From positions 16,457,651 to 16,521,650 of the forward strand of contig OZ316891.1 in assembly GCA_973895155.1 (NCBI GenBank): a stretch of 64,000 nt of DNA. Direction: 5' to 3'. The first letter of the stretch is position 1. Each line of letters opens with the position of its first letter. The position numbers were made by a program, and so were the translations under genes. Below are positions 3,208 through 26,858 of this stretch, piece by piece. The notes beneath the pieces are model-generated. The model did no database searches. It saw only the letters and a program-made list of their open reading frames with translations, and was not told where the DNA came from. The DNA comes from Marsupella aquatica. Its lineage: Eukaryota > Plantae > Marchantiophyta.

Positions 3208-4123
3208 CGGTGCAAGAGCGTCGTTCCTTTTAGGAAGGGCGGACGTGGAGGTAGGAGGCGTGAGTGGGCAGGGCGGGCGCTGATCTCCAAGTTTAGGATT
3301 AGGATCAGGACCAGGAGCGGCCCTGACACTTAGCTTAGTGGGATTGCGGTTCCACTGGTAGGAGCAACACTTGTGCTCCTGCCTTGCTGTACATAGGTAG
3401 TTTCGGGTAGGTAGGTTACTGTTAGGGAGATTAGGCTTACGCTGCAAAGAATTAGGCGGATCCACTACCAGGATAAGTACCTGGGCAGCGGGGAGCTCCG
3501 GGCCTCTTCTTTAGCAAGTTTTTAGTTTGCACCAGCCGGGCTGGGATCAAGTAGTAAGAGAAGCTCTCGGTTAGTCATACCGTGACCTTGTGTATATTCA
3601 TGTTTCCTCATGCCTAAGAGCTGAATAGAGTTGGCCTCACGGCTTAGTTCGCAGAGCTTGTGTATGAGATGTACTGTTTGTATGGCAAGTGCATGGTATG
3701 ACTCAGTCAGAAGGAGTCATTTTGCTATTTGTGTGTCGCATTAACTTGTGTGAAGAGTGCCCACATCAACCAGAAGGAAGGAAAGTAAACAAGGGAGTGA
3801 GAGTTGGATGTGTCGAGCTGAGAGAGGTCTTAGCGGCTTAACCAAGCCTATTGGGGATCATTCCGGCGGCGGAATCCAAACATACCTAACCAGAAGGAGA
3901 GGAAGACAAGGGAAGGCCTAGATTAGGCCGGCTACGTATCTCATGACCCGATGAAGGATCTGTCCAGTATATGTGTGTAAAAGGCTAATAGTAATAAGAG
4001 GAGGAGGTTAGCAGCGTCCCATGCCGCTAAGCCGCGGAAACGGCCTCGCCAAGCGCGAAACCTACGGGAATCGGCTTGAGCTGGGGGGTTTCTTGGGTTT
4101 AGGGAGCCATGGGACGCACCACA
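357..4123 (+). mobile_element. Giant LTR family X, 3' ~80% (5' part displaced by nested insertion)
   Basis: Colinear with 40637-44442; ends GGGAGCCATGGGACGCACCACA at 4123. Confidence 0.92.
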
Positions 4124-4442: not shown

Positions 4443-5954
4443 GTGGGACTCAGGTAACCCCATAATGAAGTCCATGGAGATGGACTCCCATGGAGCTGCA
4501 ACTACTGGTAAGGGTTGCAGAAGTCTTCCTTTTGCTTGGTTCTTTTGGCACGAGTAACAACTTTGCACGTGGCAAAGAACCGATTGCTTCATGTCCGGCC
4601 AATACACATCTTGCAACATGCTGCAATACGTAGCAGCTTGTCCGCCATGCCCTCCCCAGGGCAACTTGTGGTACTTTTGCATAACCTCCAGTCTTAGAGA
4701 CTCTGGGATGTACACTTGTCTCTGCTTGTATCGCCATAACTGGACATTATGCGTAGCATCCAACCCCAATGAAACATGCCTTACCTTGCCTTGACTACCC
4801 CCATTGCTTTGCCATTCCTTGGCTAACTTGTCATCCTCATACGCCTTGGCCAGAACCTTTGGCCACCCGGATTCGAGCATCGTGATCCCATTGACACGAT
4901 GATGGTCCCTACGCAATATTGCGTCAGCTGCTATGTTTGTCTTCCAAGAAGAACGTGACGGACTTCAAAATCAAAATCCGCCAAGAACATTTGCCAGCTC
5001 ATTTCCTTGGGGTTCAGCCTCGACTTAGAATTGAAGTACCCGGCCGACAAGCTATCTATGTGTATTACCACCTTGGGACCGTTCTTAAGGTAAATTTCTC
5101 ACTTCTTCAATGCATAGATCACCACGTACATTTCCCTTTCCGGGGTGATCCAATGATTTTCCAACTTACATGACTCGAAGGCCACGGGACGTCCGTCTTG
5201 GTGTAGATAGGTGCCAATGGCGTAATCACTTGCGTCTGTCCAAATCTCAAATGGCTTCCCCATCTCAAGCAACTTTAGAACCGGTGGTGTTATCAATAGC
5301 CGCTTGAGTTCTAGTGCTAACTCGCAATCCTATATCCACACAAACACTTTGTTTTTCATTGTTAGCTCGTTTAGGGGCCTCGTGATCCTCGCATAGTCTT
5401 TCATGTATCTCCGATAGAACCCTGTAAATTCTAAGAAGGCTCTAACTTGCCTTACATTGGATGGGCGTTCCCATCCTTTGATCTCCTTAAGCTTGTCCTG
5501 ACTAGGCATAATCCCCTTCGGGGTAAAGGTGTGGCCGAGGAACTGAATCTTGTTCATCGCAAGTTTGCGCTTGCTAGGTTTAGCAAAGAGACAAGTCTTA
5601 CAAAGGCAAGAGAATACTTCCCTGAGCAACTGCTCATGTTCCTCCAACATTTTTGAGTAGATTAGGATGTTGTCAATAAAGCCTACCACTCCTTGGTCTA
5701 ACAAGTCATGAAAGATGGTATAATTCATTATCTTACCCTTGTGTGCAACCCAAACGGCATAACCAAAAATTCATAGGATCCAACCCTTGTGTGCATCATG
5801 GTCTTATACTCATCTCCCTTAGCCATGCGGGTCTGGTAATACCCAGACCGCAAGTCCACCTTTGAAAACTTCTTAGCCACGGAGAGGCAATCAAAGAGGT
5901 CATCCATATGAGGTAATGGGTACTTGTTCTTTACCATTTGCTTCTTGAGGGTGA
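4443..5954 (-). pseudogene. pol: Ty3/gypsy pol fragment: RT - RNase H - integrase N-terminus, degenerate
   Basis: KNKYPLP...[12 protein letters not shown]...[10 protein letters not shown] (RT), FIDNILIYS (degenerate YxDD), WTDASDYAIG (RNase H), HKLPWGGHGG...CYSCQ and WESISMDFIMGLP (integrase); order RT-RH-INT. Confidence 0.92.
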
Positions 5955-6015
5955 GGGGAGGTAATCCATCAGTTATCAGTCACTGATATCAGTGACCCCC
6001 CTTTTTTTTCTCTAA

Positions 6016-6650
6016 TCTGGGAGAGCTCTCCAAGATGGCGACAGTTTTTTTTGGCAATCTCAGAGAGCTCTCCGAGATCCCTACCGTTTTTTTGGCCGGA
6101 GAGCTCTCCAAGATGGCAACAATTGTTTTTGGCAATCTTGGAGAGGCTCTCTGAGATCCCTACCATTTTTATGGCAATCTTGGAGAGGCTCTCTGAGATC
6201 CCAACACACTTCTAGGAGTATGTTGGAGACATGGTAGTTTGTTTGCTCACCATGTGAGAGAGCCTCTCCGATGTACCAAGTCACTCCGTTGCCATCTCGG
6301 AGAGTCTCTCCGAGATACCAAGTCTTTTTGTTGACCATCTTGGAGAGCCTCTCCGAGATACCAAGTCTTCTCGTTGACCATCTCGGAGAGCCTCTCCGAG
6401 ATACCAAGTCTTTTTGTTGACCATCTCGGAGAGCCTCTCCGAGATACCAAGTCTTTTTGTTGACCATCTCGGAGAGCCTCTCCGAGATACCAAGTCTTTT
6501 TGTTGACCATCTCAAAGAGCCTCTCTGAGATACCAAGTCTTTTTGTTGACCATCTCGGAGAGCCTCTCCGAGATACCAAGTCACTTTGCAAACCATCTTC
6601 GACTTTCCCATTCCATTTCTAAGACCATCTCAAAGAGCCTCTCCGAGATA
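6016..6650. repeat. Palindrome array 1 (left subterminal), 43-bp unit
   Basis: ATCTCGGAGAGCCTCTCCGAGAT + ACCAAGTCTTTTTGTTGACC repeated at 43-bp spacing (6296, 6339, ...); more diverged copies at 6016-6200. Confidence 0.95.
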
Positions 6651-6772
6651 CAAATACAAAAAACTTGCAAGTGATACACATCACATTCACTTTTCATATA
6701 TATGGTAATGTGTACACAGGAACACTTCATCATTGCTACCTTCTCTAAAGCTAAACCCTATTGGCCACTACT

Positions 6773-7887
6773 TTATTCTGTTATCTGATATGTGCACAGG
6801 TCATAAATAATCTTCTTTTGCAAGTTTCCTACCTGGCTGCCATCAAAATCCATAGGAGCATCTCGACTTATGCGCTCTACATAGTTAAGGATAAATACCC
6901 CACAATTTACACTATCTTCTTGTGATGGAAGGCCTGACACTAAAGTTCTAGGCCAGTTGTATGCATCTGGTGAGGGCATGCCACTTTGACTTGCTTCATC
7001 CTCGATATACCTTGTTAGAGTATACATGAGATACTCATTTCGAGCCTCCCAAAAGTTTCCTGATTTCTCCCAAAGCGAATCTAGGAACAACACCTCTTTT
7101 CCAGTTAAATCAATCACTGCCAACACCCAATGCTCCCTATTTGCCTGGTGGATAGGGACCAATATCCTGTCATAATCAAATATGTTTTCTGTTTTGGTCC
7201 ATCGAGCAACATTGGCAAAACAGTATACGGGCGTTGAGAGCAACGTGTAGAATGCTGTGATGAAAAATGCACACTTTGGATAGCCTCTTGATCTCCCCCT
7301 AGACTGCAACAAGGCCAAGTATGCATCGATGATATCTGAATGTAGCCATTGAGCTGCTATTCTTCCTTCAGACAAGCATCTCATTGACGCCCTAGTCAAC
7401 TTGTAATCTACAAAGTTGAATAGTACTTCCTCGTCTGGGAGCTCTATGGATAGACATGTGGATACTATGTCGGAAAAGTCTTGAGAGCAGACTACTTCAG
7501 CAAATAACCGAGGTATCCGAGTATTCCCACCACGTGCTACATAGGATTGAACAACATGGCATTAGGCATCATCTTCATCTAAGCTATAGGTCACAAAAGA
7601 AGGGTGAGCTATCTTGTCACTATCACTGCTGACACTCTCACTTTCATTGTAGTCTACCTCTACTGCTCTATCATCTACAAATCTAGATTTTTGCCTCTTT
7701 GTGTACTTCTCAGCTACACCCTTGAGCCGTTTGAAGGGGCGTGAATCAACAATCCCTTCTGCGTAAGTTGGAAGGCAAAATCTTTCTGGAGAGAAAGTTT
7801 TCAATGCTTCCTCCCATGCTTCACGGACTTTGTCCTTGTCTGATGTGTGCCATTGTTCGGACTCGATGTTCCTGTAGTGAACTGCCT
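6773..7887 (-). pseudogene. Ulp1/SENP-family SUMO protease (peptidase C48) exon
   Basis: WLHSDIIDAY, RILVPIHQANREHWVLAVID...FLDSL, SQEDSVNCGVF (His-Asp-Gln-Cys residues present); in frame with ORF 7562-7804 across one TAA. Confidence 0.9.
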
Positions 7888-8404
7888 ATTGGTTAAGTAG
7901 ACAGTTTAAGGTAATACCATAATAATGTGGAACTTCACATTTTTATTGATCCTCACCATGGCACAATGTAAATTGCAAACTACCTACAACAAATGGGTTC
8001 TTGGATTCAACGTTTACTCACAATCCTGAGCATTCCCACCCTTGCCTTTTGCGGCATCCTCCTCTGATACAGACTCAAGGACCAGCTTCTTCCGCCCTTT
8101 AGGCTTCTTAGTCTCCTTGGCCTCCTCCTTCTTACTCTCCTCGCCCTCCGCCTTGGTCTGATTGCCTTGCTGCATTGAAAGGAGTTTTGACACCACTAAA
8201 GCTGCTGACTCACCAAAGTAGTCATGCGCTTCCATCCCAAATACTAGTCGCCCACAATTATTGGCAGCTTTGTAGATAGCACCAAAGTGGACATTCCAAG
8301 AAAATATGATATCGCCGAGACTGGTGATGTGCTCTATGATGCATTGCAAGGTTGCAAGCGATAAGGTTCCGGCCAATTCGTCTCTCACTGCATCATCTTC
8401 CTTT

Positions 8405-9113
8405 CCTGGGAAAATAGTTTTTATAATAAAAAGGTGAGACCGCAAAAACCCCACGGCCGGGGGGAAGCAAACAGCCCCTTAGATATATCAGCACAACTCC
8501 CACAGGGAGGCCAGCAGGCATAAGCAAAGGCCAGAATCACAATAAACATAAAAAAGGGGAGACTGAAGCTATAGGCCCAAAACGTGAGTGACCCACACAT
8601 CATGTCAACTTGTAGAGCCCTAGAGCCGATAAGCAAGGTAACCCATTCACCCTTTTCCAATAGCTATCACTCCTAGACCAGCAACGCAGCCACTGAGGTG
8701 ACTCTGCCAGTACTCCTAGCAAACCAGTGTCGTTGTTTTAAAGCGATGAGATCCCTAGCCTTAGCCAGTCTGATGCGCCGCCCACCAATGGGGAGGCACC
8801 AGCCCGCAGCTCGCAAGTGCGTCTCAGTTTCCGAGAGGACCAGCCCAAAATCAAATACTCTGATCTGCTTTTTCTCAAAAATCTGCTCATTTCGTCCCAT
8901 CCATAGAGCCCACAGTATTTGATACTGCAGGAAAAAGCAGGTAGATTGAGTGTGTGTTCTGGAGTCTGTAGCAACAAGGAGTTCCAGGCTACCCCAACCC
9001 CTGCCAAACAGTTGTCTCAAGGAGCTGGACTCTCCAATTCCCCAACAGCGCATGGCGTGGGCACAGCCAAAGAAGAGGTGGGGGATGCTTTCAATTCTCC
9101 CAGGGCAAACATG
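8405..9113 (-). mobile_element. 5'-truncated L1 LINE with 15-bp TSD
   Basis: TSD GCATCATCTTCCTTT at 8390-8404 and 9114-9128; encodes HLFFGCAHAMRCW...QILWALWMGRNEQIF (end of ORF2, zf-RVT region), resembling 51338-51802. Confidence 0.9.
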
Positions 9114-9329
9114 GCATCATCTTCCTTTGTAAAATTGGATAGAGCATTGCTCTTTGCTGGGCACAAGTCACCAGTAATTGGCTTCATATGTACCTTTGGG
9201 AGGGTCACCTCTGTACCCTTTATGGTGAATATATCTAAATGCAGATATTGAGCCTGTCACATCATGCAAAATAGATTTGCACTTGTTAGCAACACTAATT
9301 GCTAAACTTATCCGACATCGGTCCTACCT

Positions 9330-9810
9330 ATCTCAGAGAGGCTCTCCGAGATCCATGCTACCTATCTCAAAGAGGCTCTCCGAGATGGATCCTACCTATC
9401 TCAAAGAGGCTCTCCGAGATCCATGCTACCTATCTCAGAGAGGCTCTCCGAGATGGATCCTACCTATCTCAGAGAGGCTCTCCGAGATGGATCCTACCTA
9501 TCTCAAAGAGGCTCTCCGAGATCCATGCTACCTATCTCAGAGAGGCTCTCCAAGATGGATCCTACCTATCTCAAAGAGGCTCTCCAAGATGGATCCTACC
9601 TATCTCAGAGAGGCTCTCCGAGATCCATGCTACCTATCTTAGAGAGGCTCTCCGAGATTGATCCTACCTATCTTGGAGAGCCTCTCCGAGATTGATCCTA
9701 CCTATCTCGGAGAGCCTCTCCAAGATCAATGTTACCGATATGGGAGAGGGTGTCCGAGATTGTAATTGCGGACACATTTTTCAACTATCTCGGAGAGCCT
9801 CTCCGAGATG
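9330..9810. repeat. Palindrome array 2 (intronic), 34-bp unit
   Basis: Palindrome plus an 11-bp spacer alternating CCATGCTACCT / GGATCCTACCT; about 12 units inside intron ~9254-9846. Confidence 0.95.
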
Positions 9811-12227
9811 ACTTCTATTGAAATGCCAAAATTGAAGTGAACTTACAGCTTTTTTGCTTGATGCCATGTAGCAAGGTGTGTCATTCCAAATGGTGAATGA
9901 GTCAATGTGATCCAACTTCTCAGCCCGGTCAATGTGAAGGTACTCAAAGATTGAGCTTGTGTGGGCAAATGAACCACTATGCACGATGCACAGGAAACCG
10001 TCATTTGTGAGTAGAGAGTCTGCCACTGTCGTCGCCACTTCTAGGTCACTGAGCCAAAATCTATTCCACACTGGAACATTATTTTCAGCTTGCGCTATGC
10101 GATAATCTGTCCCTAACTGAACAAAGATCATATCACAACCATGGCCCTTAGGTACACCATCAACTATCCAGCCTTGTTTTCGCAAGCCAGCCAACTTCAA
10201 TTTCTTACACCAATCCCGGAATTCCCTCATGAATGGAGGGAGAGACAACTTTCCCGTGGTTGGCTGGTATTTGTCCTTCAGTCAAGAAGAACACTCTAGT
10301 AAGGTCATATGCTCTTTTGCATGGCAAAATTGCAGGGCAGATGTAATAGCATGAGAGGGCCGAGGTACTCCAAGAATTTTGCAAAGATCATCCTCCGGAA
10401 TTTCTGGGGCTTCTGTTGAAACTGGCTTCTTTGTGGGTTTGTCTATCCTCTTCTCGGCTTTCTTCTTTGGCCGACTGGTTGGCTTACCAGAGATTTGTGG
10501 TTTGCTTGGGGTCCCAATCGGGGTCCCGCTTGGGGTTGAAAGGTCAGGCTCCTCCTCCTCCTCATGGCCCTCTGCATTGTCCCCGGTGGCCATCTCATCC
10601 TCCTCTCCATTGGCCCCACTTGCCGCTTTCTCATCCTCCTCTCAATTGTCCCCACTCACCGCTTTCTCATCCTCCTCTCCATTGTCCCCGGTCTTTCTTG
10701 GCTCCATCTTCTCATCCATCGAACGACGTTTGCTTGAGGTAGACCCTGGGGTTCCAAACTTTTCTTTACTTTTTTCTGCAGAACAAAGTAAGGAGTTTAG
10801 TATACATTTTACAATGATACTATCTCGGAGAGGCTCTCAAACATAGGTCAGATGTACAATGCAAGCTAGGGTGTAAACCTTACCAGGAGTGCCTTGTTCT
10901 GAGGTGGTGTCTTCTGATTCCTTTTCTTTCTTCCCCCGAACCTTCTTCCCATCATACTCTGGCTCTCCAAGAGGCAAAATGGCCTCCAAGTCCAATGCAG
11001 CCTTTGTCGACTGCTCAAGATCTGCCAACTTTGAAGGCGCAAAAAGGTTGTCTGGTAGTTTCCCCTCCTTTAGGAGGTTGGTAGCTTCCTTCTCTTTGGC
11101 CGTAATGAACTCATTCCAATCATTGAACTCCATGAACCATGGACAATTTTGTCTCTCCCAGTCTGAAAAGACTCTTGCTGCTAGCTTCAGCCCGTCTGTT
11201 GGATACATTGATAGCGGGCCTTTCTCCGTCATCCATGCAGTCAAAGCACTTGGTAACTCTTTGAAAGTAGAGGCTCCAATGCTCTCCTAATGAAGTAAAT
11301 ATCTGACCACACACCTCTTTGCACGCTTCCTCCACACATCTTTGCTTTGCTTTGCTGGATTCCACATCTTCTTGCCCTCCTCATAGGACCGAGTCTGTAC
11401 AAATTGCTTGTACATCTTGTTGTGAAACTCAACAAACTTGTCTTTGCTTCCATTGAAGTTCTGCCACTCACCAGAATCATATGCACTCTTGGCAAACTCT
11501 GACATGATCAAACTGCCAACATGGGCAATGTAACACCACATTGCACACTAGCAATCAAGCTCTCACTGCTGAATCACCATATACATCTGGATGGTGGTGT
11601 TGCTTCTTCTCCTCCGCGGTTGAGAAATGAACACGGAGTAACTTATTTCGACACTCAGTAGGCATCACCGCACTTGCAAACAATTTAACTCAATCCAACC
11701 CCACTTGCACTTGTGGCCAATCTTTCTGTTTACTCTGCAACTGGTGCAGCTCCTCGGCAATCTCCAAAAATTCCTCTCCATTTGCTGGATTGACAATCTG
11801 AGCAAACTTCTGCATTTTTCCCTCCCAAGACCTACAGGCTTCACTCGTCATGAGTGCGGTTTCCTTTTGGAACTTATCCAAACTCCAGGCATGGCCAATT
11901 GCAGCATCGACTGCCATCTCCTTCGCAAGACGAATCCTCCCGTCTTCAATATTATTCCACGACATGATGTACACAACAGCATCCTTTGTCATGCACTTGC
12001 TATACCATGTCTTTCCATGCCCATGGCTTCTTGCTGCTAAGAATCTACCATTACCATCCGGATGAAGCAATGTCTGATACTCCTACAAAGGTGTCATCAA
12101 CAACTTCTTCACCCTGTCTGCATCGGTCAACCAAGATGTCTGCACAACGTTTGCGCTTATCCTGCGTAAAAGAAGCAACAAATGTTGGCGTCAAAGGCTA
12201 TGTACAAGCAAATTAGATCTCTGTCAG

Positions 12228-12500
12228 ATGCTCTCCGAGAAGGCATGGATATCTCGGAGAGGCTCTCCGAGAAGGCATGGATATCTCAGAGAGGCTCTCC
12301 GAGAAGGCATCGCTCTTCAAGAAGGCATGGATATCTCGGAGAGGCTCTCTGAGAAGGCATGGATATCTTGGAGAGGCTCTCCGAGAAGGCATCGCTCTTC
12401 AAGAAGGCATGGATATCTCGGAGAGCCTCTCTAAGATAGCATTTTGAGAGCCAAACATTGTATGTGTGTATGTATCTATCTCAAAGAGCCTCTCCAAGAT
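12228..12500. repeat. Palindrome array 3 (intronic), 32-bp unit
   Basis: ATCTCGGAGAGGCTCTCCGAGAAGGCATGGAT repeats (12251, 12283, ...) inside intron ~12162-12572. Confidence 0.93.
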
Positions 12501-13269
12501 AGGATTGCCTATGTGGGTGCAAAGGAACAACAAATGCAAGAACAACCAAAAACCAAGGGGGCGATCACTTACGCATTGAGGCCATGCATTGCCTGCTCAA
12601 TCTTCCTGAATCCTTGTTTTCCAGTTTGTAGAAGAGAGAATCTCACGCAAGGGTGGTAATTCTGCTCGTTAGGATACTCTTCAGCCACTTGTCTCCATGC
12701 ATTCAGGCGATGATTTCCATCAAACACCCAAAACATCTTACCCTTCAAAATGTGAAACTCCTCGTACTCATCACACTCCATCTCAAATTTTGCGTTAGCT
12801 TGTTCCCATAGAGGGTCCCAATCTGCGGAAAATTCAGACATAGAGTGGGTGGCGTTATGCGCATTGGTCTCTGATACGTGGAATTCCAAAAACTTGTCCA
12901 CATACCCATTCTTCACAAAGTCCTTCTTCATCTTGAGAATGGAACTCTGTTGGAGAGTCCGAACTGCCTCCATTGTCATCAAACGACATAGTGGAATCCG
13001 AGGTGGCTCTCTGGGCTTCCCGCTTGGTTAGCTCCAAATGAAACCAAGTACTCCCCAACAATCCCTTCGAATGCACCTTTGTTCAAACGTTCAGCAGACA
13101 CATTTTCAAAGTTCAGAACCTTTGGCTCCAGCTTCATTGTGTGAGTTTCCCGACCACTGGCGGTGCTCTCTGCTGTCTTTGATCTGATCTGCTGACCAGA
13201 CAATGAAGGAGAGGGAGTGGGTTGCTTCCTCTTCCCTATCATTTTCAAACCTCACCAACTACTGAATTG

Positions 13270-13740
13270 CATGAGCACAACTTGCACAACACTTGCACCG
13301 CCCACAGCTCAGTTGCAGCAAGCTCAATCACTGGCAATGCATGGCACAACACACAACACATTCGCACCGCTTGCACAACACTCGCACTCGCACCGCCATA
13401 GGTCACCGCACTCAATCGCACCGCTTCCAGCACTCGCACTCACAATCGCACCGCTTCCAGCACTCGTACCACCACAACTCAGTCGCAACAAGCTCAATCA
13501 CTAGCAGTGGCACAACACACAACACAATCGCACCACTTTCACAGCACTCGCACTCGCACCGCCACAGGTCACCGCACTCAATCGCACCGCTTCCACCACT
13601 CGCACTCACAATCACACCGCTTCCAGCACTCGCACCACCACAACTTAGTCGCAGCAAGCTCAATCACTGGCAGTGGCACAACACACAACACAATTGCACC
13701 GCTTCCAGCACTCGCACCACCACAACTCAGTCGCAGCAAA
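13270..13740. repeat. AC-rich compound tandem repeat (~170-bp higher-order unit) upstream of the ParB-like gene
   Basis: Recurrent CACTCGCAC, AATCGCACCGCTTCCAG and AAGCTCAATCACTGGCA blocks, about 2.5 copies. Confidence 0.85.
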
Positions 13741-13832
13741 CTCCCTATCCCATAGGGTTTTGTGGGTTTTACTGGAAAATAAAAATAAAAATAAAAATAT
13801 TGAGCCTAATCCTTGCTAAACACCTGAAGATG

Positions 13833-14600
13833 GCATCTCGGAGAGCCTCTCCAACATCCCTAAACCCTTCATACCTACGCAAGATGGTATCTTGGAGAGC
13901 CTCTCCAACATGGGTCAAGGCTACATACCTCCGCAAGATGGCATCTTGGAGAGCCTCTCCAAGATGAAACTTGGTGAGATCCGGTGCAAGATCCCGTGCA
14001 AGATCTAATCTCAGAGAGGCTCTCCAAGATGGGTCGAGGCTATATACCTCCGCAAGATGGCATCTTGGAGAGCCTCTCCAAGATGAAACTTGGTGATATC
14101 CGGTGCAAGATCTAATCTCAGAGAGCCTCTCCAAGATGGGCCGAGGCTACATACCTCCGCAAGATGGCATCTCAGAGAGCCTCTCCAAGATGAAACTTGG
14201 TGAGATCCGGTGCAAGATCTAATCTCGGAGAGCCTCTCTAACATGGGTCAAGGGTACATACCTGCGCAAGATGGCATGTCGGAGAGCCTCTCCAAGATGA
14301 AACTTGGTGAGATCCGGTGCAAGATCTAATCTTGGAGAGCCTCTCCAAGATGGGTCGAGGCTACATACCTCCGCAAGATGGCATCTCGGAGAGCCTCTCC
14401 AAGATGAAACTTGGTGAGATCCGGTGCAAGATCTAATCTCGGAGAGCCTCTCTAACATGGGTCGAGGGTTCATACCTTCGCAAGATGGCATGTCGGAGAG
14501 CCTCTCCAAGATGAAACTTGGTGAGATCCGGTGCAAGATCAATCTCAGAGAGCCTCACTAACATGGGTTGAGGCTTCCAGATGGCATCTGAGAGAGCCTA
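13833..14600. repeat. Palindrome array 4 (intergenic), 107-bp dimer unit
   Basis: Palindrome alternating with spacers GGGTCGAGGCTACATACCTCCGCAAGATGGC and GAAACTTGGTGAGATCCGGTGCAAGATCTA; period 107 (14222, 14329). Confidence 0.95.
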
Positions 14601-14659
14601 ATGGACACCCTAAACTTGCTGTCAAAGGTTCTTGGATGTTCAACGAGGGAAGAATATTT

Positions 14660-15120
14660 GTAACAATTTTTACGCTTGGTCTGGGCGATAAGGTACTCTG
14701 ACAAAACAATCTTGACATATTCAACAAAGAAAGAAGCGAGTCTAACAATTTTTACACTCTGTCTAGGCGGTAAGGTACTCTGACAAAACAATCTTGACAT
14801 TCAACAAAGAAAGAAGCGAGTGTAACAGTTTTTACGCTCGGTCTGGGCAATAAGGTACTTTGACAAAACAATCTTGACATATTCAACAAAGAAAGAAGCG
14901 AGTGTAACAGTTTTTACGCTCGGTCTGGGCGATAAGGTACTCTGACAAAACAATCTTGACATATTCAACAAAGAAAGAAGTGAGTGTAATAGTTTTTACG
15001 CTCTATCTGGGCGGTAAGGTACTCTGACAAAACAATCGTCACATATTCAGAAAGAAAGAAGCGACTCTAATAGTTTTTACGCTTTGTCTGGGCGATAAGG
15101 TACTCTGAGAAAACAAAGTC
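14660..15120. repeat. ~82-bp tandem repeat, about 6 copies, between the divergent MULE genes
   Basis: TTTTTACGCTCGGTCTGGGCGATAAGGTACTCTGACAAAACAATCTTGACATATTCAACAAAGAAAGAAGCGAG repeated. Confidence 0.92.
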
Positions 15121-15234
15121 ATAAGAATGAATAGCAGTTTTCACATACTGTTTGCTGATTAAGTTACGCTCTTGAGAAACAAAGAGGAATTGAGCAAGCC
15201 GGAAAGGCAATAACATCCCTTACATGAACGAGGT

Positions 15235-18200
15235 TGTGATGCCTAGCCAGGAATCATTGGGCTAGTTTAAGTGGAAAAGAGAAGTGTACCCTAGAAACAC
15301 CTTAGTATAGTTACAAAAATAAGGAAAATATAAACAATTAAGGGTGACTCTGGAACCCGAGCTGAGGCCGGAAGTAAGGACGCCAGGGGAGAGAACACGA
15401 TTAGGGTTAGGGCACGCTAAGTGCCGGCGGCTAGGGGTAACCAACGGGAGGGAGAACCAGAGGAGGAGAGGGGTAAGGACCGCTCGCGAGGAATAGTGGC
15501 TCATTTGCAAGCACGAACTGGGCAGGCGACTACGGGCGGCCAACTACTGTCAACTGCTTAGGCAAGCGCTTAGGGTGGGAACAGATACCGACTATCAACT
15601 CGAGAAGGGTATGAGCAACATCAATCAAGCGGCACATTTTTGGGGATGCCTGTTCGAACGGGCAACTGAGTACATTGGGACTTATGAGGACGAAGAATCG
15701 AAGAGAGCAGCTCAAGAACGACAGGAGCTCGCCCGATTGTGGGAGCTACAGAAAGCTGCCTTCTTAGGAGGAGAACTCATCAAGGCTGAATTCCTGTGGA
15801 CACCTACTGGCAACGAGCTAGACGACCTGCTATTTTGCGAAGATAGAGTCGTCGGCATCCGAGAAGCCATCAAACGCTGCAACGACATACACTGGGAGTT
15901 GAAGGGTAGCACGGAGGGGTGGACAAAGGCAACCGTGCTAGGAGAGACATCCACGGGAGCCGAGATGAAGAGGAAGGGGAACAACAATGAAGAGGCCACC
16001 CCAGCAAAAAGAACGAGGTCGACGGCACCAAAGAAGCCAGCAGAACAGCAGAGCAGGAGGCAGAGAGAAGCCGAGGAGGAGGAGGTCAACCCCATCAATG
16101 CCATTCCAACAAACGATGACACCTGGAAAGGCTGGGCGGCGACCCTACCAGAGGAAGTGCAATTACACTTTGCACGGGAGGAGGATGCATGCTTTACAGC
16201 TATGCAGACCAAGAAATACCAAGGCTTCATGGCCGGATCCGGCTTGGAAGCCTTCGTAAGATTACCACGGCTGAAGCCGGAGGTGCCGGACTCAGACTTG
16301 TTAAAATCCGTGGGATCATGGGAGTCCAAGACCAATTCCACAAGGGTGTATGGGAAGGATTTCTATCTCACTCCCCGGGTGATTGCTGAAGTGTTTGGCT
16401 TGCCGATGGGTAATAAGACCAAGGTTGATACCAGGAAGACCTTACCTGACAAGGAGTTTCGGTCGTTCCTAGGACCATCAACAAAGAATGGCTTCTTCCG
16501 GAACACCTGCACCAACCCGCACATTGGAGAGATGATCGATTTCTTGCGGGTAACCATGCACTGTAACTTGCCGAGGGCAGAGATCGGCAAGGCTCAGGTC
16601 TACCTGGAAAAAAGGCCAGACCGGGCCCAAGCCGGGATTACAACGGGTACCTCCTCAACCAACTGAAGAAGATCTTGAAGGAGGAACAGCAGGTGATCGG
16701 CGTGGGAAGCGTGTCCCGGCTTGGCTATCACATGCCGCTGTTGTGCCGGTATGCCAGAAGTCAAATCTTTGCCCCAGTACTTCCCCTATCGGCAAGAGCA
16801 CCGGAGGAGGTCCCGGAGCAGAGGCCGGCAACGGAGAAACCCAACCCGCCCGACAGTCCTACAATCGAGCAAGTGTTTAGGCCAAGGACGGAGGACTTGC
16901 CGATGCAGCAACCAGGCATGCAGAATCTGCTGAAATTGCTGGAGAAGGAAAAGAGAACGGCAACGGCAACGGCAACGGCACCAATGCAGGACACTGCTCC
17001 AGAGGTGGGCCTAAGCCGGCTTACAAGGGAAAACCCCTTTACTGGGGTCAAGGAGAGAAGGAGGCCGGAACACGAGCCGGGAGTCCGGATGTATGTCGGA
17101 GCCTCAAGTCCCGAAGCCGAGGAGAAGCAGGCCGTAGCTCCCGGCCACGACAAGGAGAACAAGAGATCAACATGGAAGCCGAAGGAGGAACCAAGACCGG
17201 TGAGAGGTGAAGTCGTGTTCACGACAAAACCAGGAGAACAGTGGGAGAAGCCGGTAGTCCAAGCCGAGGAGGAGGCGGTAGAGGACTACAGCAATGATGA
17301 CTCCGGCTACGGGTCGGATCATCATGTTCCAGGAGTAAGGACCTGTGGCCGGTTCATCCCCACGCTCCCAAGAGTAGTTCGAGGAGACCCGAGCCAGCAG
17401 AGCAGCCCCGAGTCTCCCCCACCAGATGTCGCTCCCCCGAGCTTTGACGGCATAAAACAAACGGCGCAGGAATTTCAGGAGCGAATCAGGGAGGAAGAGG
17501 AGGCAGCCCTGGCTAGGGAAAAGGATTTACCAGGAGGAGAATGGCCAGAGGACATCAGGCGGCTTGCAGAAAAACGAAGCATCCCTCCAGCCACAATAGA
17601 AAAGATCCGCAAGGCGGCTTGGGAGCACAGGCCGCGGTGGATGATGCCGATGACTTCTACTTCCTCCACCTATGCTAAAAATAGAGCCATGGAGTACGGG
17701 GAAATGTGTGGAGAGCAAGCGCTCAGCATCTTTGGGGAAGAGTTGGAGCAAGGACCCTTTTTTCAGAGGGAGATGTTGGAGAAGTGCCAATTAGAAGAAG
17801 CGGTGGCTTTGGAAAGAAGCAAGAAGGACGAGGTCATCCGTCGGCTCAGGGCAAGGGAAGCCGAAATCAAAGACCTGAGGGCGGCCAAGAAAGCCCAAGA
17901 TGAGCTACGGATTAAGCGGCATGAGCTAAATATCATGCAGGGCCAATTGGATACCGCATAGTCTGATAATCGGATTATCGAGAATAAATTGACTCGAACC
18001 CAAGAAGAGTTGGCCGATGCGATCAAGGAGCGAGAGAAGTGGAAGCGAGAGCTGAGGGATGCAAAGGAGGCCCACATAACAGCCAACAACCGGGCCAGGG
18101 CGGAGACCCAAAGAAGGGAAAGGGCATTGAAGGGGGAGCTCGAGGTTATCCGCGGAGCCCTTGAGAAGAAGGAGGCCGAGTTAGGGAAATCCTATCAAGG

Positions 18201-19978
18201 GATTATTGCGCTGCAGCAAGAGCTTGCATCCCTGACGGCCAGCTTCAAGGCCGACCTGCGTGAGAAGGACAATATGCTCGATCAGACTTATGCCAAGATG
18301 AACCAGATGGAGTCTGTCATCATTGCAGAGCTTGACAAGGAGTTAAGAGCAACCCGGGAGGAGAGAGCTACGTTTAAACAGGAATTGGAGGAAGCCCAAA
18401 AGGAGCTGGAGGAGGCGCGCAAGGACCTGGACGAAGTGCAGGAAGAGTTGGAGGAAAGCACGCGGAAGCTAGAGAACTTACAACGACGAGCCGACAACCA
18501 AACGGAGCGGCTGAAGAAACAAGCCGCAGTATTTAAGTGCTTGGCTTCATCAGGGCCAACTCAAATTGAGGCCACTAAGTTACCAGGAGTGGTACTGGCC
18601 GAAGGACAAGCCGCGCCATTTGCACTAGTGCCGGAAGTAAGTGGGAAGAGGAAGGGGCCAGCTGCCGAACCAGAAAAGAAGAAGAAGTGGAAACCTTCAG
18701 GGTCAGGGAGTAATACGGCTCCACAGGCCATGGTGACCAAGGAGGTAAACCCAGCACCGACCTCGGGCAGGGTTACGGCAGAGGATCCAACTACCCTAGA
18801 AGAAGGGGATGACAAAGCCGAGGCCAGGATACTCGGTAATGAAGCCGAGGTACCCAATCCGCCATTTGAGTGTGCAGGGGAGGCCGTAGCCGTGGCTGAG
18901 GCCGTAGCCAAGGCTGATGTTGAAGCCGATGCCGTTGCCGGGGGCGGACCCAATCAGGCCGATGGAGAGTTGACTCAGTCAAGGGCAGGTAATCTGTCAG
19001 AGAACAAACCTACGGCAATGGCTGAGGTGGAAGCGTTGGGGGCGTCCACTGAGGAACAGACACCGCTGCCATGACGATGGTGGAGGGCTGCTCCTTTCAA
19101 GGAGGGTGGACGTGGAGGGAGGAGGCGTGAGTGGGCAGGGCGGGCTCAAATCTCTAAGTTTAGGATTAGGATCAGGACCAGGAGGCAGCCCTGACACTTA
19201 GCTTAGTAGGATTGCGGTTCCACTGGTAAGAGCAACACTTGTACTCCTGCCTTGCTGTACATAGGTAGATTCAGTTAGGTAGATTAGGCTTACGCTGCAA
19301 GGAATTAGGCGGATCCACTACCAGGATAAGTACCTGGGCAGCGGGGAGCTCAGGGCCTCTTCTTTAGCAAGTTTTTAGTTGCACCAGCCGGGCTGGGATC
19401 AAGTAGTAAGAGAAGCTCTCGGTTAGTCATACAGTGACCCTTGTGTATATTCATGTTTCCTCATGCCTAAGAGCTAAATAGAGTTGGCCTCACGGCTTAG
19501 TTCGCAGAGCTTGTGTATGAGATGTACTGTTTGTATGGCAAGTGCATGGTATGACTCAGTCAGAAGGAGTCATTTTGCTATTTGTGTGTCGCATTAACTT
19601 GTGTGAAGAGTGCCCACATCAACTAATAGAGGAAGGAAAGTAAGCAAGGGAGTGAGAGTTGGATGTGTCGAGCTGAGAGAGGTCTTAGCGGCTTAACCAA
19701 GCCTATTGGGGATCATTCCGGCGGCGGAATCCAAATATACCTAACAAGATGGAGGGGAAGACAAGGGAAGGCCTAGATTAGGCTGGCTACGTATCTCATG
19801 ATCCAATGAAGGATCTGTCCAATATATGCGTGTAAAATGTTAATAGTAGTAGTAGAAGGAGGTTAGTAGCGTCCCATGGCACTAAGCCGCGGAAACGGCC
19901 TCGCCAAGCACGAAACCCGCGGGAATCGGCTTGTGAAGGGGGGTTTCTGGGGTTTAGGGAGCCATGGGACGCACCACA
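15235..19978 (+). mobile_element. Giant LTR family X, full length (~4.74 kb)
   Basis: TGTGATGCCTAG...GGACGCACCACA; ORF pieces 15575-16666, 16675-17961, 17989-19074. Confidence 0.93.
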
Positions 19979-22350
19979 GCTTGGGAACAAAGGCTGCGGT
20001 GGATGATGCCGATGACTTCTACTTCCTCCACCTATGCTAAAAATAGAGCCATGGAGTACGGGGAGATGTGTGGAGAGCAAGCGCTCAGCATCTTTGGGGA
20101 GGAGTTGGAGCAAGGACCCTTTTTTCATAGGGAGATGTTGGAGAAGCGCCAATTAGAAGAAGCGGTGGCTTTGGAAAGAAGCAAGAAGGACGAGGTCATC
20201 CGTCGGCTTAGGGCAAGGGAAGCCAAAATCAAAGACCTGAGGGCGGCCAAGAAAGCCCAAGATGAGCTACGGATTAAGCGGCATGAGCTAAATATCATGC
20301 AGGGCCAATTGGATACCGCATAGTCTGATAATCGGATTATCGAGAATAAACTGACTCGAACCCAAGGAGAGTTGGCCGATGCAATCAAGGAGCAGGAGAA
20401 GTGGAAGCGAGAGCTGAGGGATGCAGAGGAGGCCCACATAACAGCCAACAACCGGGCCATGGCGGAGACCCAGAGAAGGGAAAGGGCGTTGAAGGGGGAG
20501 CTCGAGGATATCCGCGGAGCCCTTGAGCAGAAGGAGGCTGAGTTAGGGAAATCCTATCAAGGGATTATTGCGCTGCAGCAGGAGCTTGCGTCCCTGAAGG
20601 CCAGCTTCAAGGCCGACCTACAAGAGAAGGATGACCAGCTTGACTAGACTTATGCCAAGATGAATAAAATGGAGTCTGAGGTCGTAACGGAGCTCGACAA
20701 AGAGCTAAGAGCAACCCAGGAGGAGAGGGCTACCTTCAAGAAGGAATTGGAGGAAGCCCACAGGGAGCTGGAGGAAGCCCAGAAGGAGCTGGAGGAGGCG
20801 TGCAAGGACCTGGACGAAGTGCAGGAAGAGTTGGAGGAAAGCACGCAGAAGCTGGAAAACTTACAATGGCGAGCCGACAACCAAACGGAGCGACTGAAGA
20901 AACAAGTCGCAGTATTTAAGTGCTTGGCTTCTTCCAGCCCAACTCCAATTGGGGCAACCAAGTTACCAGGAGTGGTACTGGCCGAAGGACAAGCCGCGCC
21001 ACTTGCACCAGTGCCGGAGGTAAGTGGGAAGGGGAAGGGGCCAGCTGCCGAACCAGAAAAGAAGAAGAAGCGAAAACCTTTTGGGTCAAGGAGTAATACG
21101 GCTCCACAGGCCATGGTGACCAAGGAGGTAAACCCAGCACCGACCTCAGGCAGGGTCACAGTAGAGGATCCAACTACCCTAGAAGGAGGGGAGGGCAAAC
21201 CCGAGGCCGGGATACTCGGTAATGAAGCCGAGGTACCGAAACCACCACTTGAGTGTGCAGGGGAGGCCGTAGCCGAGGCTGATGCCAAAGCCGATGCCGA
21301 TGCCGAAGCCGAGGGTGGACCCAGTCAGGCCGATGGAGAGTTGACTCAGTCTAGGGCAGGTAATCTGTCAGAGAACGAACCTACGGCAGTGGCTGAGGAG
21401 GAAGCGTTGGGGGCGTCCATTGAGGAACAGACACCGCTGCCATGATGGTGGTGGAGGGCCGCTCCTTTCAAGGAGGGCGGACGTGGAGGGAGGAGGCGTG
21501 AGTGGGCAGGGCAGGCTCAAATCTCTAAGTTTAGGATTAGGATCAGGACTAGGAGGCGGCCCTGACACTTAGCTTAGTGGGATTGTGGTTCTACTGGTAA
21601 GAACAACACTTGTACTTCTGCCTCGCTGTACATAGGTAGATTCAGTTAGGTAGATTAGGCTTACGCTGCAAGGAATTAGGTGGATCCACTACCAGGATAA
21701 GTACCTGGGCAGCGGGGAGCTCAGGGCCTCTTCTTTAGCAAGTTTTTAGTTGCACCAGCCGGGCTGGGATCAAGTAGTAAGAGAAGCTCTCGGTTAGTCA
21801 TACAGTGACCCTTGTGTATATTCATGTTTCCTCATGCCTAAGAGCTGAATAGAGTTGGCCTCACGGCTTAGTTCGCAGAGCTTGTGTATGAGATATACTG
21901 TTTGTATGGCAAGTGCATGGTATGACTCAGTCAGAAGGAGTCATTTTGCTATTTGTGTGTCGCATTAACTTGTGTGAAGAGTGCCCACATCAACTAATAG
22001 ATGAAGGAAAGTAAGCAAGGGAGTGAGAGTTGGATGTGTCGAGCTGAGAGAGGTCTTAGCGGCTTAACCAAGCCTGTTGGGGATCATTCCGGCGGCGGAA
22101 TCCAAACATACCTAACCAGAAGGAGGGGAAGACAAGGGAAGGCCTAGATTAGGCCGGCTACGTATCTCATGACCCGATGAAGGATCTGTCTAGTATATGT
22201 GTGTAAAATGTTAATAGTAGTAGTAGAAAGAAGTTAGCAGCGTCCCATGCCGCTAAGCCGCGAAAACGGCCTCGCCAAGCGCGAAACCTGCGGGAATCGG
22301 CTTGTGCAGGGGGGGTTTCTTGGGTTTAGGGAGCCATGGGACGCACCACA
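19979..22350 (+). mobile_element. 3' half of another family-X LTR, in tandem with the previous copy
   Basis: Begins mid-ORF (GCTTGGGAACAAAGG, cf. 17617) and ends GCACCACA; the composite 15235-22350 is flanked by GAGGT/GAGGC. Confidence 0.92.
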
Positions 22351-22421
22351 GAGGCATCTCTCGGTAGATGCCACTTGAACTCTCTTGGTGCTCATTTTTA
22401 GTCTTTCTTCAAGTGGTTATC

Positions 22422-25400
22422 ATGGCTGGCCGTGTGAGGATCACGTTTCCAGACAATGGAGACGTTGTTGTGCTAGTGACTGATGGTGTTGTTCGACATA
22501 CACCAGACAACAAATTAGCTCGTCGGTTTGATGTTGAGATTGGGGAGTGGGCACTCTTTGAGGCCGGCGATGTCTTACCATTGATTGAGGCAGACTCAGA
22601 GGAGAGTGGAGAGGAAAGGATATGGCATCTGAAAAGTGAAGTTTCGTACCTCCTTCAGCAGAGGGTGTACTCTGTTCCTCTTACTGAAGTTGGTTTGCAA
22701 TCTCAAACTGGAGAGAAGATTTCAGAGTGGCCGGTAGAGGTAGAGCAAGCCAAATTTCTTGAAAGTGTTGTTGTTGCAATGCTGAAAGGGAAAGGCACTT
22801 CGCGATGTGTAAAGGCTGCCCATTCCATTCTCAGAGTGCATTATCCACAACGAGTCATGACTCTGCCATAATGGTCTGATGGGGATTGCATTTTTGAGCT
22901 CCCCCCATTCACAGGTATCCACACAAAGGGTGCCTTCTTCTTGGGTATGGAGCGGAGAAATGACTGCTACTTGTGGAGCAAGCTCATCGAGACAGGGGCC
23001 CAAATTGGACCCAACCTAAACAAGGGAGGCTTCAAGTATAAGATTGGGAATGTGAGATGTCTGGGCTCTTTGCAATGTCCACATTCAGATTCTCCGGCTT
23101 TTACAAGTAAGAATGAGCGCAATTGCACAGAATGGCAGCGAGATAGGGGTGGGAGAAATGAGTTTCCATTTCTTGTTGGGCAACTAGTTCCAGCAGAGAG
23201 TGTGATTTGCGCCTTTTGTGATCGGCCTCCTAAGTGTATAGCCAAGTGTCCAACCAAAATGTTCTACATCACTCCAACCTCTCATGACCATTACATTTAC
23301 AAGCACATGACACATGTTGCTATGCATGTTGGGAGTCACTCACATCCGGCCAAATTTGTTCTCAAGAAAGATCGAAAAGCGTTCTTACATAAGTTGATGG
23401 AAGAGAAATTGAAGAAGAATCCTCATGCAATGCCGTCTGTGATCAAGAGTGACACAATTAAAGCTCTAAGGGATATTTTTGATGACAAGGTTGCTGGGAT
23501 TGTCACATTTGAGGAAGCACGGGATCTGAATGAAACATTGGCGATCCTATCAAATTGATCAGTTGTAAGATCTATGATACAGAGCATACGCAAGTATACC
23601 CATGCCTCATCCGACCTCCAAGTCATCCTTGATCTTAAAAAAAAACAGTGTTTTCATTTGTCCAGAGCACTCTATTTCCAAACCAGAAGCTAGATACAGA
23701 TGAGCGCCCACACATTTTCAAGATGACTGTAAAGAGTCTAGGGTCTGGAATCGATCTCATTCAAAGGATGTAGCCTGGTAGAGATCTACAAGACTCATGG
23801 ATGATGTTTGATGTCATGCATTGGATGACTGAGAAGCAATGGTGCACAATGTCAGCTCATGTATACGACCACCTATACAAAGGTCTTTGCACAATTTTTG
23901 TATGCGAGCTAGTTTCGGAAGATACTGCTGCACTACAAACTGCATGGAAGGCCATGAAGCAAGTGTCTAAGGCAAATGGGCTTGACAATGTTACGTTTTA
24001 TGGGTTCATTGCCGATAATGCTACAGCTAGGTGGAATGCAGTTTGAAACACATTCTGGGATGGAAGAGTTAATTCTCAAAAGGAGCGATCTGATGCATTT
24101 CACTGGGCGCAATCAGTGGAGAAGATGACAAAGAAATGCATTCTTCCTGGCAAAGCAGTTGAGCATAAGGAGCTTCTGGATTCATTGAGGGACGCTGCCA
24201 ATGTGGTTCTTGCATTTCGGACTTTTGAGAAGATGAAGGATTGGTGGAAAAATGGGAATGCAATCAAAGGAAAAACCAAGTCAATGGAGACATGGCTTTT
24301 GTGGTGGATTGTGTGGTTCTCCTAGTGGGGAAACTTTATTTGCTGGTAAGTCTATGAATTCTTAGTAATATTCCATCTTGGAGAGGCTCTCCAAGATGAT
24401 TAATCTTGGACATGTCAGAGAGCTTATTTGAGAACAACAAATTGGTCTTCTCGGAGAGCCTCTCCGAGATGGAACATATGGGTAATCTTCGAGATGGAAG
24501 ACGGGTCATCTCAGAGATCCTCTCCGAGATGGAAGAGGTGGGTCATCTTGGAGAGTCTCTCCAAGATGGAAGAGGTGGGTCATCTCGGAGAGGCTCTTCA
24601 AGATGAAAGAGGTGGGTCATCTCGGAGAGCCTCTCCAAGATGGAAGAGGTGGGTCATCTTGGAGAGCCTCTCCGAGAGGAACATATGGGTAATCTTGGAG
24701 AGCCTCTCCGAGATGAAAGAGGTGGGTCATCTCGGAGAGCCTCTCCAAGATGGAAGAGGTGGGTCATCTTGGAGAGCCTCTCCCAGATGAAACAAATGGG
24801 CGACTAGGAAGACATGTTAGAGAGCAAACTTTTGTTTTGTAAATATATGGTTCATCTTAGAGAGGCTCTCCGAGATGGAACACTGGTCATCTTGGAGAGC
24901 CTCTCTAGGATGGACCCCGTTGGACATGTTGCAGATGTACAAGATGACTCATGTACATTTTTTGGTAATACTCTTTTCTTTGATTTTTGTGTAGGACATG
25001 GACAGAACTAAGTCTGCATTGATGCTGAACCATAGCGGGGCAGAATCCATGCATGCCGCGATGCGCGGATGGTCTTCCACAACAAAGATTGGGATAGTGC
25101 AATCTTGTATAACAGATGCAACCCGTGCATCAAATCAAATTGGTGCCCTTGTGAACTACACGACCCACAAGAGGAAGGGCCGTGGCCCAAGCCTCTTTGA
25201 ACTTCGTCTCTGAGATGCCAGGATGGTTGGGAATGTTAAGAGTTTCTTCCCAAAGTTAAATACGACAATGACTCAACCGGAGATGGTTGAATATGCTTTG
25301 GGGGACCCAATTCTTGGTGACTATGAAACTCAACGAATGTCGGCGCGAGGCAAGGTTCCAGCTAATGCTATTGCAGTAGAAGACTCCCACCGCAATGATG

Positions 25401-26639
25401 TCATTCTAGTAACGCAACCTAAGAAGCGAAAGTTCAAGGGGATTTTAAGCCAAGATGCAAACTTGAAAAGTACCATTCCTGACGTGGTCGACTTGTCAAC
25501 CTCGTTAGACTCTTCTCCAGGCTCTGGTGGATCAGATGTGGTGATTTTGGAGAGCCCAGTACAGCGTGAGACAAGGTCGGCACGTGTCCCTCCACCATCA
25601 ACCCCAAGGAGGTCAACTCGAGTGCCTCCTCCGCCCCCAACAAGGGCAACACGTGTTCCACCTCCTCCAACCCCAACAAGGTCAATACCAAGGTCACCTC
25701 GTGTTTGTCCACCAAGGCGGTTTGCTGAACCTTTGCATAATGCTGGCAAATAGAGACAAGTTCAAGAGAGCAATGTGATGCCAGGAATGTTGTTTTTGTC
25801 TTGCATCAGTCGCCATGGAAGTGGGCCCGCTTGTAGAGGTGCCTTCAAAGGCACAGAACGTCCAACATGCTGTCTATACATCAAGGAGGTGGGGTTTTGT
25901 CATGCAATGTTGGGTGTGGTAGGATTGTGCTTATTGGCTGGGAGCAGTTACAAGGATCCAAACATTGCACAAAAGTTTTGGTTTTGCCCAAACAATGAGT
26001 GTTGCCAGAAATCCTCCATGGCATATGTTACTGGGCGGCTGCCCCCACTACCGGAGAAGGTCCCAGTTGCTCGATGAACCTATCTAACACAAGAGGAAGT
26101 TGATTTTCTCCATGTCAATGGATTGAATGTGGTACAGACCATCATTCCTGGTGATTCAATGGTGAGTCCTGGCAATGTAATTGTGGACTTGAATAGTTAC
26201 CCTAAGCAGATGGATCCATTGAAGCCTGATGTCAGGCTGAGCCGGCGCAATGGCCGCTTACGGCGAAGGAGATCCGTTGTGACGGCAGATGCAAAGAAAC
26301 GTATTGAGAGTGCCAAATACGTATTGAGAGTTGATGAGGTTCACTTCCATGACTCGAATTGAAAAAGAGAATGCAACTGGCTTACGAGTGGTATTTTTCA
26401 ACACTCATCGTGACCGCAATTCAGCCCATTGTCTACAGATATGTGTGTTCCCAACTTGCTCTTGTCAAGATTTCATCATGAGAGATACTGGAAGATACTT
26501 CTTTCCTTGCAAACACTTGTATTGGTGCTATAAAAACATTTGTGGACAAGATCTAGAGAGCAACCAAGAGATCCACCAACCAATCTTGACACTTAGCGAG
26601 GTTCGTAAATTGGTGTCAAATGTAGCAGGCTCAGGGTGA
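22422..26639 (+). pseudogene. MULE-type DDE transposase with N-terminal GCM-like Zn domain and C-terminal SWIM finger
   Basis: RCLGSLQC...CAFC...C...HVGSHSHP (GCM-like); MMFDVMH...FYGFIADNATARWNAV...DAFHWAQSV (MULE DDE core); PTCSCQDF...PCKHLYW (SWIM). Intron ~24346-24994; several stops and frameshifts. Confidence 0.82.
24374..24910. repeat. Palindrome array 5 (transposase intron), 37-bp unit
   Basis: Palindrome + GGAAGAGGTGGGTC (24545, 24582, ...), between GTAAGT donor ~24346 and TGTAG acceptor ~24994. Confidence 0.95.
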
Positions 26640-26737
26640 ATGCATGTCAAAGATGTTTCAGGTTTAGTGGGTATAACGATCTACTTTTGTATCCTTTCAT
26701 AATAATAAATGTTCAAGATTTCAAATGATGTTGATCC

Positions 26738-26858
26738 CATCTCGAAGACGCTCTCCGAGATTCCAACCTAGTGTGGATCCCATCTTGGAGAGGCTCTCCG
26801 CGATTCCAAGTGATGTTGATCCCATCTCGGAGGCTCTCTGAGATTCCAAGTGATGTTG
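26738..26858. repeat. Palindrome array 6 (right subterminal, truncated)
   Basis: Three diverged palindromes with spacer TCCAAGTGATGTTGATCCC. Confidence 0.85.

Follow-up and report, generated by a model that had tools for sequence, protein, structure and literature searches.

Within a 64-kb window of Marsupella aquatica DNA (the whole stretch analysed here, 64,000 nucleotides of contig OZ316891.1), a decayed Mutator-like DNA transposon (5950-26857) carries many copies of a 23-bp palindrome, clustered in arrays outside its predicted coding sequence. Some protein encoded by the element likely binds this motif. The best explanation for the arrays is more tentative: by analogy with VANC, they may be clustered sites where the element's accessory protein binds as a dimer, thereby letting cognate copies stay active in the face of host methylation.

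Palindrome arrays and their placement

The first-pass annotation of the window described a 23-bp palindrome repeated in six arrays. The repetition is borne out. Scanned with up to three mismatches, the window gives 56 matches, all within 6135-26804, where 100 shuffled versions lead one to expect none; permitting four mismatches brings the total to 58 copies. The arrays number seven, the left end holding two, and a few single sites accompany them. All 58 copies lie inside the one decayed element and the remainder of the window has none; a motif equally frequent off the element, the alternative that the annotation had raised, does not hold for these 64 kb. A scan for the 7-bp arms only (up to two mismatches) finds 50 sites with a 9-bp gap and four with other gaps in the range 5-13 bp, and again none in the window outside the element. 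The two far-left copies (6015 and 6057; span 6015-6078) have a gap of 8 bp rather than 9. Contig joints from runs X1 and X4 skip 5998-6097, and other copies of the family may lack this pair.

Two predicted genes stand head to head in the element: an accessory gene (minus strand, 13242-6773) and a transposase gene (plus strand, 22422-26630). The introns are predictions based on GT-AG ends, on reading frames, and on homologs. Copies are found in the subterminal stretch on either side, between the genes, and in four of the five introns. Array 1a (6014-6202; period 42 in a 78-bp unit, with two 22-bp variants) is left subterminal, and array 1b (6258-6649; period 43) lies downstream of the accessory-gene stop. 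Three accessory-gene introns follow: 9254-9846, with array 2 (9311-9809; period 34); 10776-10883, with a single copy (10822-10844); and 12162-12572, with array 3 (12226-12500; period 32 in an 82-bp unit). Array 4 (13827-14575; 53/54-bp units as a 107-bp dimer) lies between the genes, array 5 (24375-24911; period 37) within the transposase intron 24346-24994, and array 6 (26716-26857; period 43; truncated) downstream of the transposase. The earlier picture of three long introns with arrays and a 108-bp intron with one copy is thereby confirmed on the predicted introns; the fifth intron, 7886-8021, has no copy.

Exons are avoided throughout. None of the 58 copies falls in the 8077 bp of inferred exon in the 13070-bp element, an outcome with a chance of about 0.001 for seven loci placed at random. 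Once two later insertions are subtracted, the gaps from cluster to cluster are 1.0-2.7 kb, which agrees with the first estimate of a site every 1-3 kb.

The motif is not constant, as had been supposed. Both CGs are kept in just 9 of the 58 copies, and C>T or G>A changes at CG or CCG positions make up 79 of the 102 mismatches, the trace expected from deamination of methylated cytosine. The CGs of the palindromes are heavily deaminated.

Each array was also said to have its own spacer and period. Spacers are indeed unrelated in most pairs; arrays 1b and 6, both with period 43, are a possible exception. The annotation had named spacer homology across arrays as the point against separate origins: of 51 between-array pairs, one (1b versus 6) falls below p 0.01, at an uncorrected 0.006, and a second stands at p 0.011; correction leaves neither significant, and with spacers of 9-31 nt the test has low power. 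Flanks were not copied along with the motif in most arrays. Separate amplification around a common motif is supported. Periods of 32, 42, 43, 43, and 53/54 bp are near multiples of 10.5 and those of 34 and 37 bp are not; no phasing is claimed.

Relatives and the conserved signal

A profile scan of metagenome contigs yielded 50 candidates, reduced to two loci. One (L001; 54% amino-acid identity) is real. The other (L002) is a false positive, matching on the strand opposite an FtsH gene. L001 shares the position of the methyltransferase intron, which has no motif there. Its next intron, however, contains two exact pairs of the 7-bp arms, each with a 9-bp gap and with different, non-self-complementary cores; 2000 resamples produced no such arm pairs. 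The exon that follows this intron is homologous to window exon X (E 5e-8).

The transposase gene provides a parallel case. A relative about 60% identical, P0001, runs past its splice donor and there reads SGRGSPR, where the window motif translates as SRRGSPR. This reading lies in the same transposase intron as array 5, and the pattern is absent from the other proteins retrieved, 5819 residues in all. The conserved signal is therefore taken to be a 7-9-7 spaced palindrome, which appears to have the shape of a dimer-binding site. Judged from L001, the part that is kept is the 7+7 bp arms rather than the whole 23 bp first proposed.

Selection on the motif is supported by its absence from exons and by the persistence of arms and 9-bp gap in the 54% relative. 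Selection for site number, which the annotation had favoured, does not follow, because L001 has just two copies in one intron in view; copying of sites within the element may also occur.

Elsewhere, the exact double motif has no match in metagenome contigs, and two patterns have none in viral contigs. One isolated match in prokaryotic genomes (L003) is taken as chance.

The two genes and their surroundings

The accessory gene (five inferred exons) is broken by stops, two frameshifts, and a piece of a long interspersed nuclear element (LINE). Other family copies, seen in run contigs, differ at the two frameshifts and at the stop positions; this fits a single reading frame in the family, with differences from copy to copy. 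The predicted order is: ParB/DGQHR-like domain; helical region X; acidic linker; beta-class methyltransferase-like domain; and Ulp1.

The ParB/DGQHR-like exon (12573-13027, minus strand) contains a DGNHR motif and has weak but concordant matches, all below cut-offs: TIGR03187 DGQHR (E 0.011); phrog_1033 ParB-like (E 0.088); and DUF1015 (E 0.14). It also matches an Atlas cluster (0.91) of which 13% is DndB. Longer protein relatives were found neither with this exon nor with profile A1 (below), both weak negatives; tblastn against phages found none. Region X gave nothing notable in family-library scans.

The methyltransferase-like domain (8146-10130, minus strand) is split by an intron and the LINE piece, and its motifs are degenerate. 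Library searches give 23 matches at E up to 0.001, among them one false hit to a repeat protein. A profile of 20 rows (A1, which excludes that repeat protein, P0020, as well as P0013, P0017, and P0018) finds CcrM (6PBD, E 9.3e-5) and, weakly, three other DNA amino-methyltransferases, so that all four matches are of the same class; single-sequence searches of PDB sequences found nothing significant. One relative, P0024, matches PF01555 (E 5e-5, below the curated cut-off). The N- and C-terminal parts lie in one protein in P0013, and the window's N-terminal part was placed by pairwise comparison. The structural model of P0013 has a predicted local distance difference test (pLDDT) score of 56, its N-terminal half being modelled poorly. 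With Foldseek its top ten matches are all M1.HpyAVI or CcrM (E 0.02 or weaker, about 58 columns). With VIA the score to M1.HpyAVI is Z 5.0 (root-mean-square deviation 2.8 over 85 aligned positions), level with that to the tRNA methylase Trm11 (Z 5.3). The profile and these weak fold matches point to a beta-class fold with the S-adenosylmethionine-binding part at the C-terminus.

Catalysis is another matter. The motif (D/N/S)PP(Y/F/W) is absent from the window's N-terminal part and from P0013, and the GxG of FxGxG is absent in 18 of the 20 A1 rows, surviving in the distant P0023 and P0024 alone. The domain is therefore probably a pseudo-enzyme. (P0023 and P0024 may represent a stage intermediate between active enzymes and this degenerate group.) Homology supports, though not strongly, the exon-intron structure and a methyltransferase fold that lacks its catalytic motifs.

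The Ulp1/Peptidase_C48 domain (6773-7561, minus strand) is clear (Pfam PF02902, E 2.4e-25), and what we take to be the His, Asp, and Cys of its triad are apparently present. In P0017 the methyltransferase-like end and Ulp1 share one frame. No VANC or MAIN-like Pfam family was detected in the accessory exons scanned as separate fragments, where a very remote match is possible.

The transposase gene is also broken. It is collinear with P0001 at 58-69% identity, the sole longer relative found by protein search, and ends in a SWIM finger (PF04434, E 0.00086; 19.2 bits, where the cut-off is 19.6). The Pfam Mutator-like element (MULE) model matches neither the window pieces nor P0001. By eye, the protein presumably also has a DDE-like core, acidic motifs, a D-x-x-H signature, and a putative zinc-binding N-terminal domain. 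The Mutator superfamily label rests on the SWIM finger and these motifs.

The element begins at 5950, interrupting a gypsy pol frame that stops at 5949; run X4 contigs continue into gypsy sequence past 5949. Its right end is missing: the element is cut inside array 6, and other sequence, apparently a long terminal repeat (LTR), runs from 26858 on. No partner of the left end lies within the window. One later insertion is the LINE 3' fragment (8405-9112, minus strand; 15-bp target duplication; zf-RVT, E 0.05). It is absent from other copies, as a contig joint in runs X2 and X3 (8389-9114) skips 724 bp. The other is a 7.1-kb solo-LTR-like unit (15235-22350, plus strand), with a partial duplication and a 5-bp target duplication with one mismatch; its identity to the window's other copies is 84-93%. 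Across 5800-15300, contigs from four runs (two studies) reach each of the 30 bins and show many variants, and the element therefore belongs to a multi-copy family; contig depth in runs X1-X4 does not equal copy number. Contig joints, unreliable in repeats, suggest that array length varies between family copies.

Other repeats lie in and around the element. A perfect 18-bp palindrome (5979-5996), 30 bp inside the left end and unrelated to the array motif, is a candidate end site for the transposase. Tandem repeats without the motif flank array 4 (14659-15116, 82-bp units; 13290-13743, nested 30/82/166-bp units). The LTR-like unit, at about 4.7 kb unusually long, has six full or partial copies, 82-93% identical (357-4123, 15235-19978, 19979-22350, 27409-32043, 35097-36472, and 39770-44442); each contains a long reading frame for a coiled-coil protein that no Pfam family clearly matches. 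At 46409-51314 lies a LINE whose frames are DUF4283, endonuclease, and reverse transcriptase; such a LINE, along with the gypsy elements, is indicative of a plant. Pfam scans also place a host gene with PX and Rubicon-homology domains at 55400-60700 (minus strand).

Candidate binders and known systems

How such arrays could arise and act may be sketched as follows. A site would first appear in an intron, promoter, or end, either newly arisen or as a copy, and then multiply by slippage or unequal exchange; local multiplication of this kind would give each array its own spacer. A homodimer would bind both 7-bp arms, and the core would contribute specificity for the family. With a bound site every 1-3 kb, and perhaps also ParB-like spreading and removal of SUMO by Ulp1, the element would be opened. 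Once an element copy had died, its methylated CGs would decay.

The closest parallel is VANDAL21/VANC21, along with VANDAL6/VANC6 (PMC5735166; Sasaki 2023, PMC10398659). In both cases a Mutator-like element with an accessory gene carries one motif in intronic, intergenic, and terminal tandem repeats at high local density: VANC21 sits at introns, at intergenic positions, and at terminal non-coding DNA, and its motifs were multiplied by tandem repeats (Hosaka 2017, PMC5735166). For VANC21 the motif consists of a 9-bp word arrayed in the same orientation, whereas that of the window is a 7-9-7 spaced palindrome with arms kept across distant families. VANC itself is described as dicot-specific and MAIN-like (PMC13547354). 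Because the layout matches but no VANC domain was detected, the resemblance looks convergent.

Ulp1 also ends the accessory genes of Kaonashi (KIU) non-TIR MULEs and is carried by some VANC genes (review, PMC13317346); in the window it is joined instead to ParB/DGQHR-like and beta-class methyltransferase-like domains. An Ulp1 C48 domain in a MULE gene other than the transposase, as in KIU, is found here (in the window and in P0017), and common origin with KIU is not implied. Spm TnpA and the AtMu1 transposase are likewise element-encoded proteins with dense cognate motifs, the window protein being predicted; they bind and demethylate at termini (Sasaki 2026, bioRxiv 10.64898/2026.08.24.746577), whereas the window sites are mostly internal. 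The C-terminal half of the methyltransferase-like domain resembles CcrM, M1.HpyAVI, rotifer N4CMT, and Marchantia DN4MT1 in fold and motif order; it differs in being transposon-borne and, in the window and close relatives, in lacking both (D/N/S)PP(Y/F/W) and FxGxG. Enzymes of the beta class dimerise (PMC7544214; bioRxiv 10.1101/2021.02.12.428880). The accessory protein is favoured as the binder because of this dimerisation, the VANC-like placement of the arrays, the presence of Ulp1 in VANC genes, and the reported binding of transposase and TnpA at termini.

A more specific version of this proposal involves prokaryotic parts. Bacterial ParB-parS systems presumably offer a likeness, a ParB-like domain beside clustered palindromes. 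They differ in that the ParB assignment here is weak, no helix-turn-helix is shown, no ParA accompanies it, and the window motif is not parS. ParB and methyltransferase do adjoin in phage ParB-terminase loci, and ParB-linked methyltransferases are reported in phages, chlorophytes, and chytrids (Iyer 2016, PMC4738411). It is conceivable, if unlikely, that the lineage took up a bacterial or phage ParB and methyltransferase module, lost catalysis, and fused a SUMO protease; the dimer would then act as a parS-like loader that binds the 7-9-7 palindromes with their CGs, spreads from them over the element, and shields it from methylation by the host.

The transposase is the other candidate among the element's own proteins. 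The arrays would then be transposase sites that spread from the ends into internal non-coding DNA, combining end recognition with self-activation. That is doubtful, even with arrays on both sides of the element, a motif kept in the 60% identical transposase relative, and the precedent of AtMu1, whose transposase alone binds motifs and activates cognate copies (bioRxiv 10.64898/2026.08.24.746577). Transposase and TnpA are reported to bind at termini, whereas the copies here lie mostly in the interior, as far as about 8 kb from the left end, where they could compete with end recognition. A neutral history requires no binder at all: a hairpin-prone palindrome, spread by ectopic conversion or templated insertion, would be tolerated in non-coding DNA and expanded by slippage. 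The persistence in L001 of arms with two mutable CGs and an exact 9-bp gap, while the core changed, makes this improbable, as do the uncopied flanks of most arrays and the absence of copies from the LINE and LTR insertions inside the element. Such a history would nonetheless suit the common core of all arrays in the window, the possible common spacer ancestry of arrays 1b and 6, and the tandem repeats without the motif, and purifying selection on proteins alone yields exon avoidance.

Action as RNA, or through the host, has a similarly low probability. Each copy is predicted to fold as a hairpin (-8 to -14 kcal/mol), four predicted introns carry the motif, and tandem repeats can yield small interfering RNA; the palindromes might thus be a source of small RNA or a splicing or transcript signal. 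Three arrays, however, lie outside either predicted coding span, and one is intergenic. What is kept is sequence and gap length, not pairing: many copies hold pair-breaking changes, no compensatory change was seen, the L001 cores are non-self-complementary, and no Rfam family matches. Long-kept arms would suit a host protein. The inverted repeat of the auxin factor differs from the window motif in its core bases.

Several points weigh against binding by the accessory protein. No recognisable sequence-specific DNA-binding domain was found in it, and the transposase has a plausible one. Its ParB assignment is only weakly suggested by the matches listed above, and a single-sequence fold of that exon is uninformative (pLDDT 32). 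VANC motifs are short, non-palindromic by sequence, same-orientation, and fast-changing between families (PMC5735166); arms kept across distant families fit a binder that evolves slowly, which might be the transposase or a host protein. Constraint on the proteins could by itself account for exon avoidance, which is no proof of function. The evidence from distant relatives comes from a single short contig and a single protein cluster. The 7-bp arm length was picked after L001 had been seen, only two sites are in view there, and the P0001 motif is known as translation only. Exon order also differs. Window exon X follows array 3 and precedes the methyltransferase-like exon, and in L001 (59-1317) this order is reversed, so either the accessory gene was shuffled between families or the L001 copy was rearranged, as far as the sequences suggest.

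Sequence-specific anti-silencing by accessory proteins is documented for VANDAL and Spm elements of flowering plants (PMC5735166; bioRxiv 10.64898/2026.08.24.746577). Searches of mostly open literature gave no description of this domain combination in a transposon or of such arrays in non-flowering plants. The new parts are the accessory protein and the 7-9-7 signal shared across families. Together they make a sharply defined test case: a spaced palindrome of 14 bases, two proteins that might bind it, and naturally occurring core variants. A working binder would also be a candidate tool for targeted demethylation. If the parS-like loader is real, VANC-type anti-silencing would have a second, independent form built from prokaryotic parts. 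More generally, this array layout next to an accessory protein of unrelated type would mean that the strategy, capture of Ulp1 included, evolved more than once.

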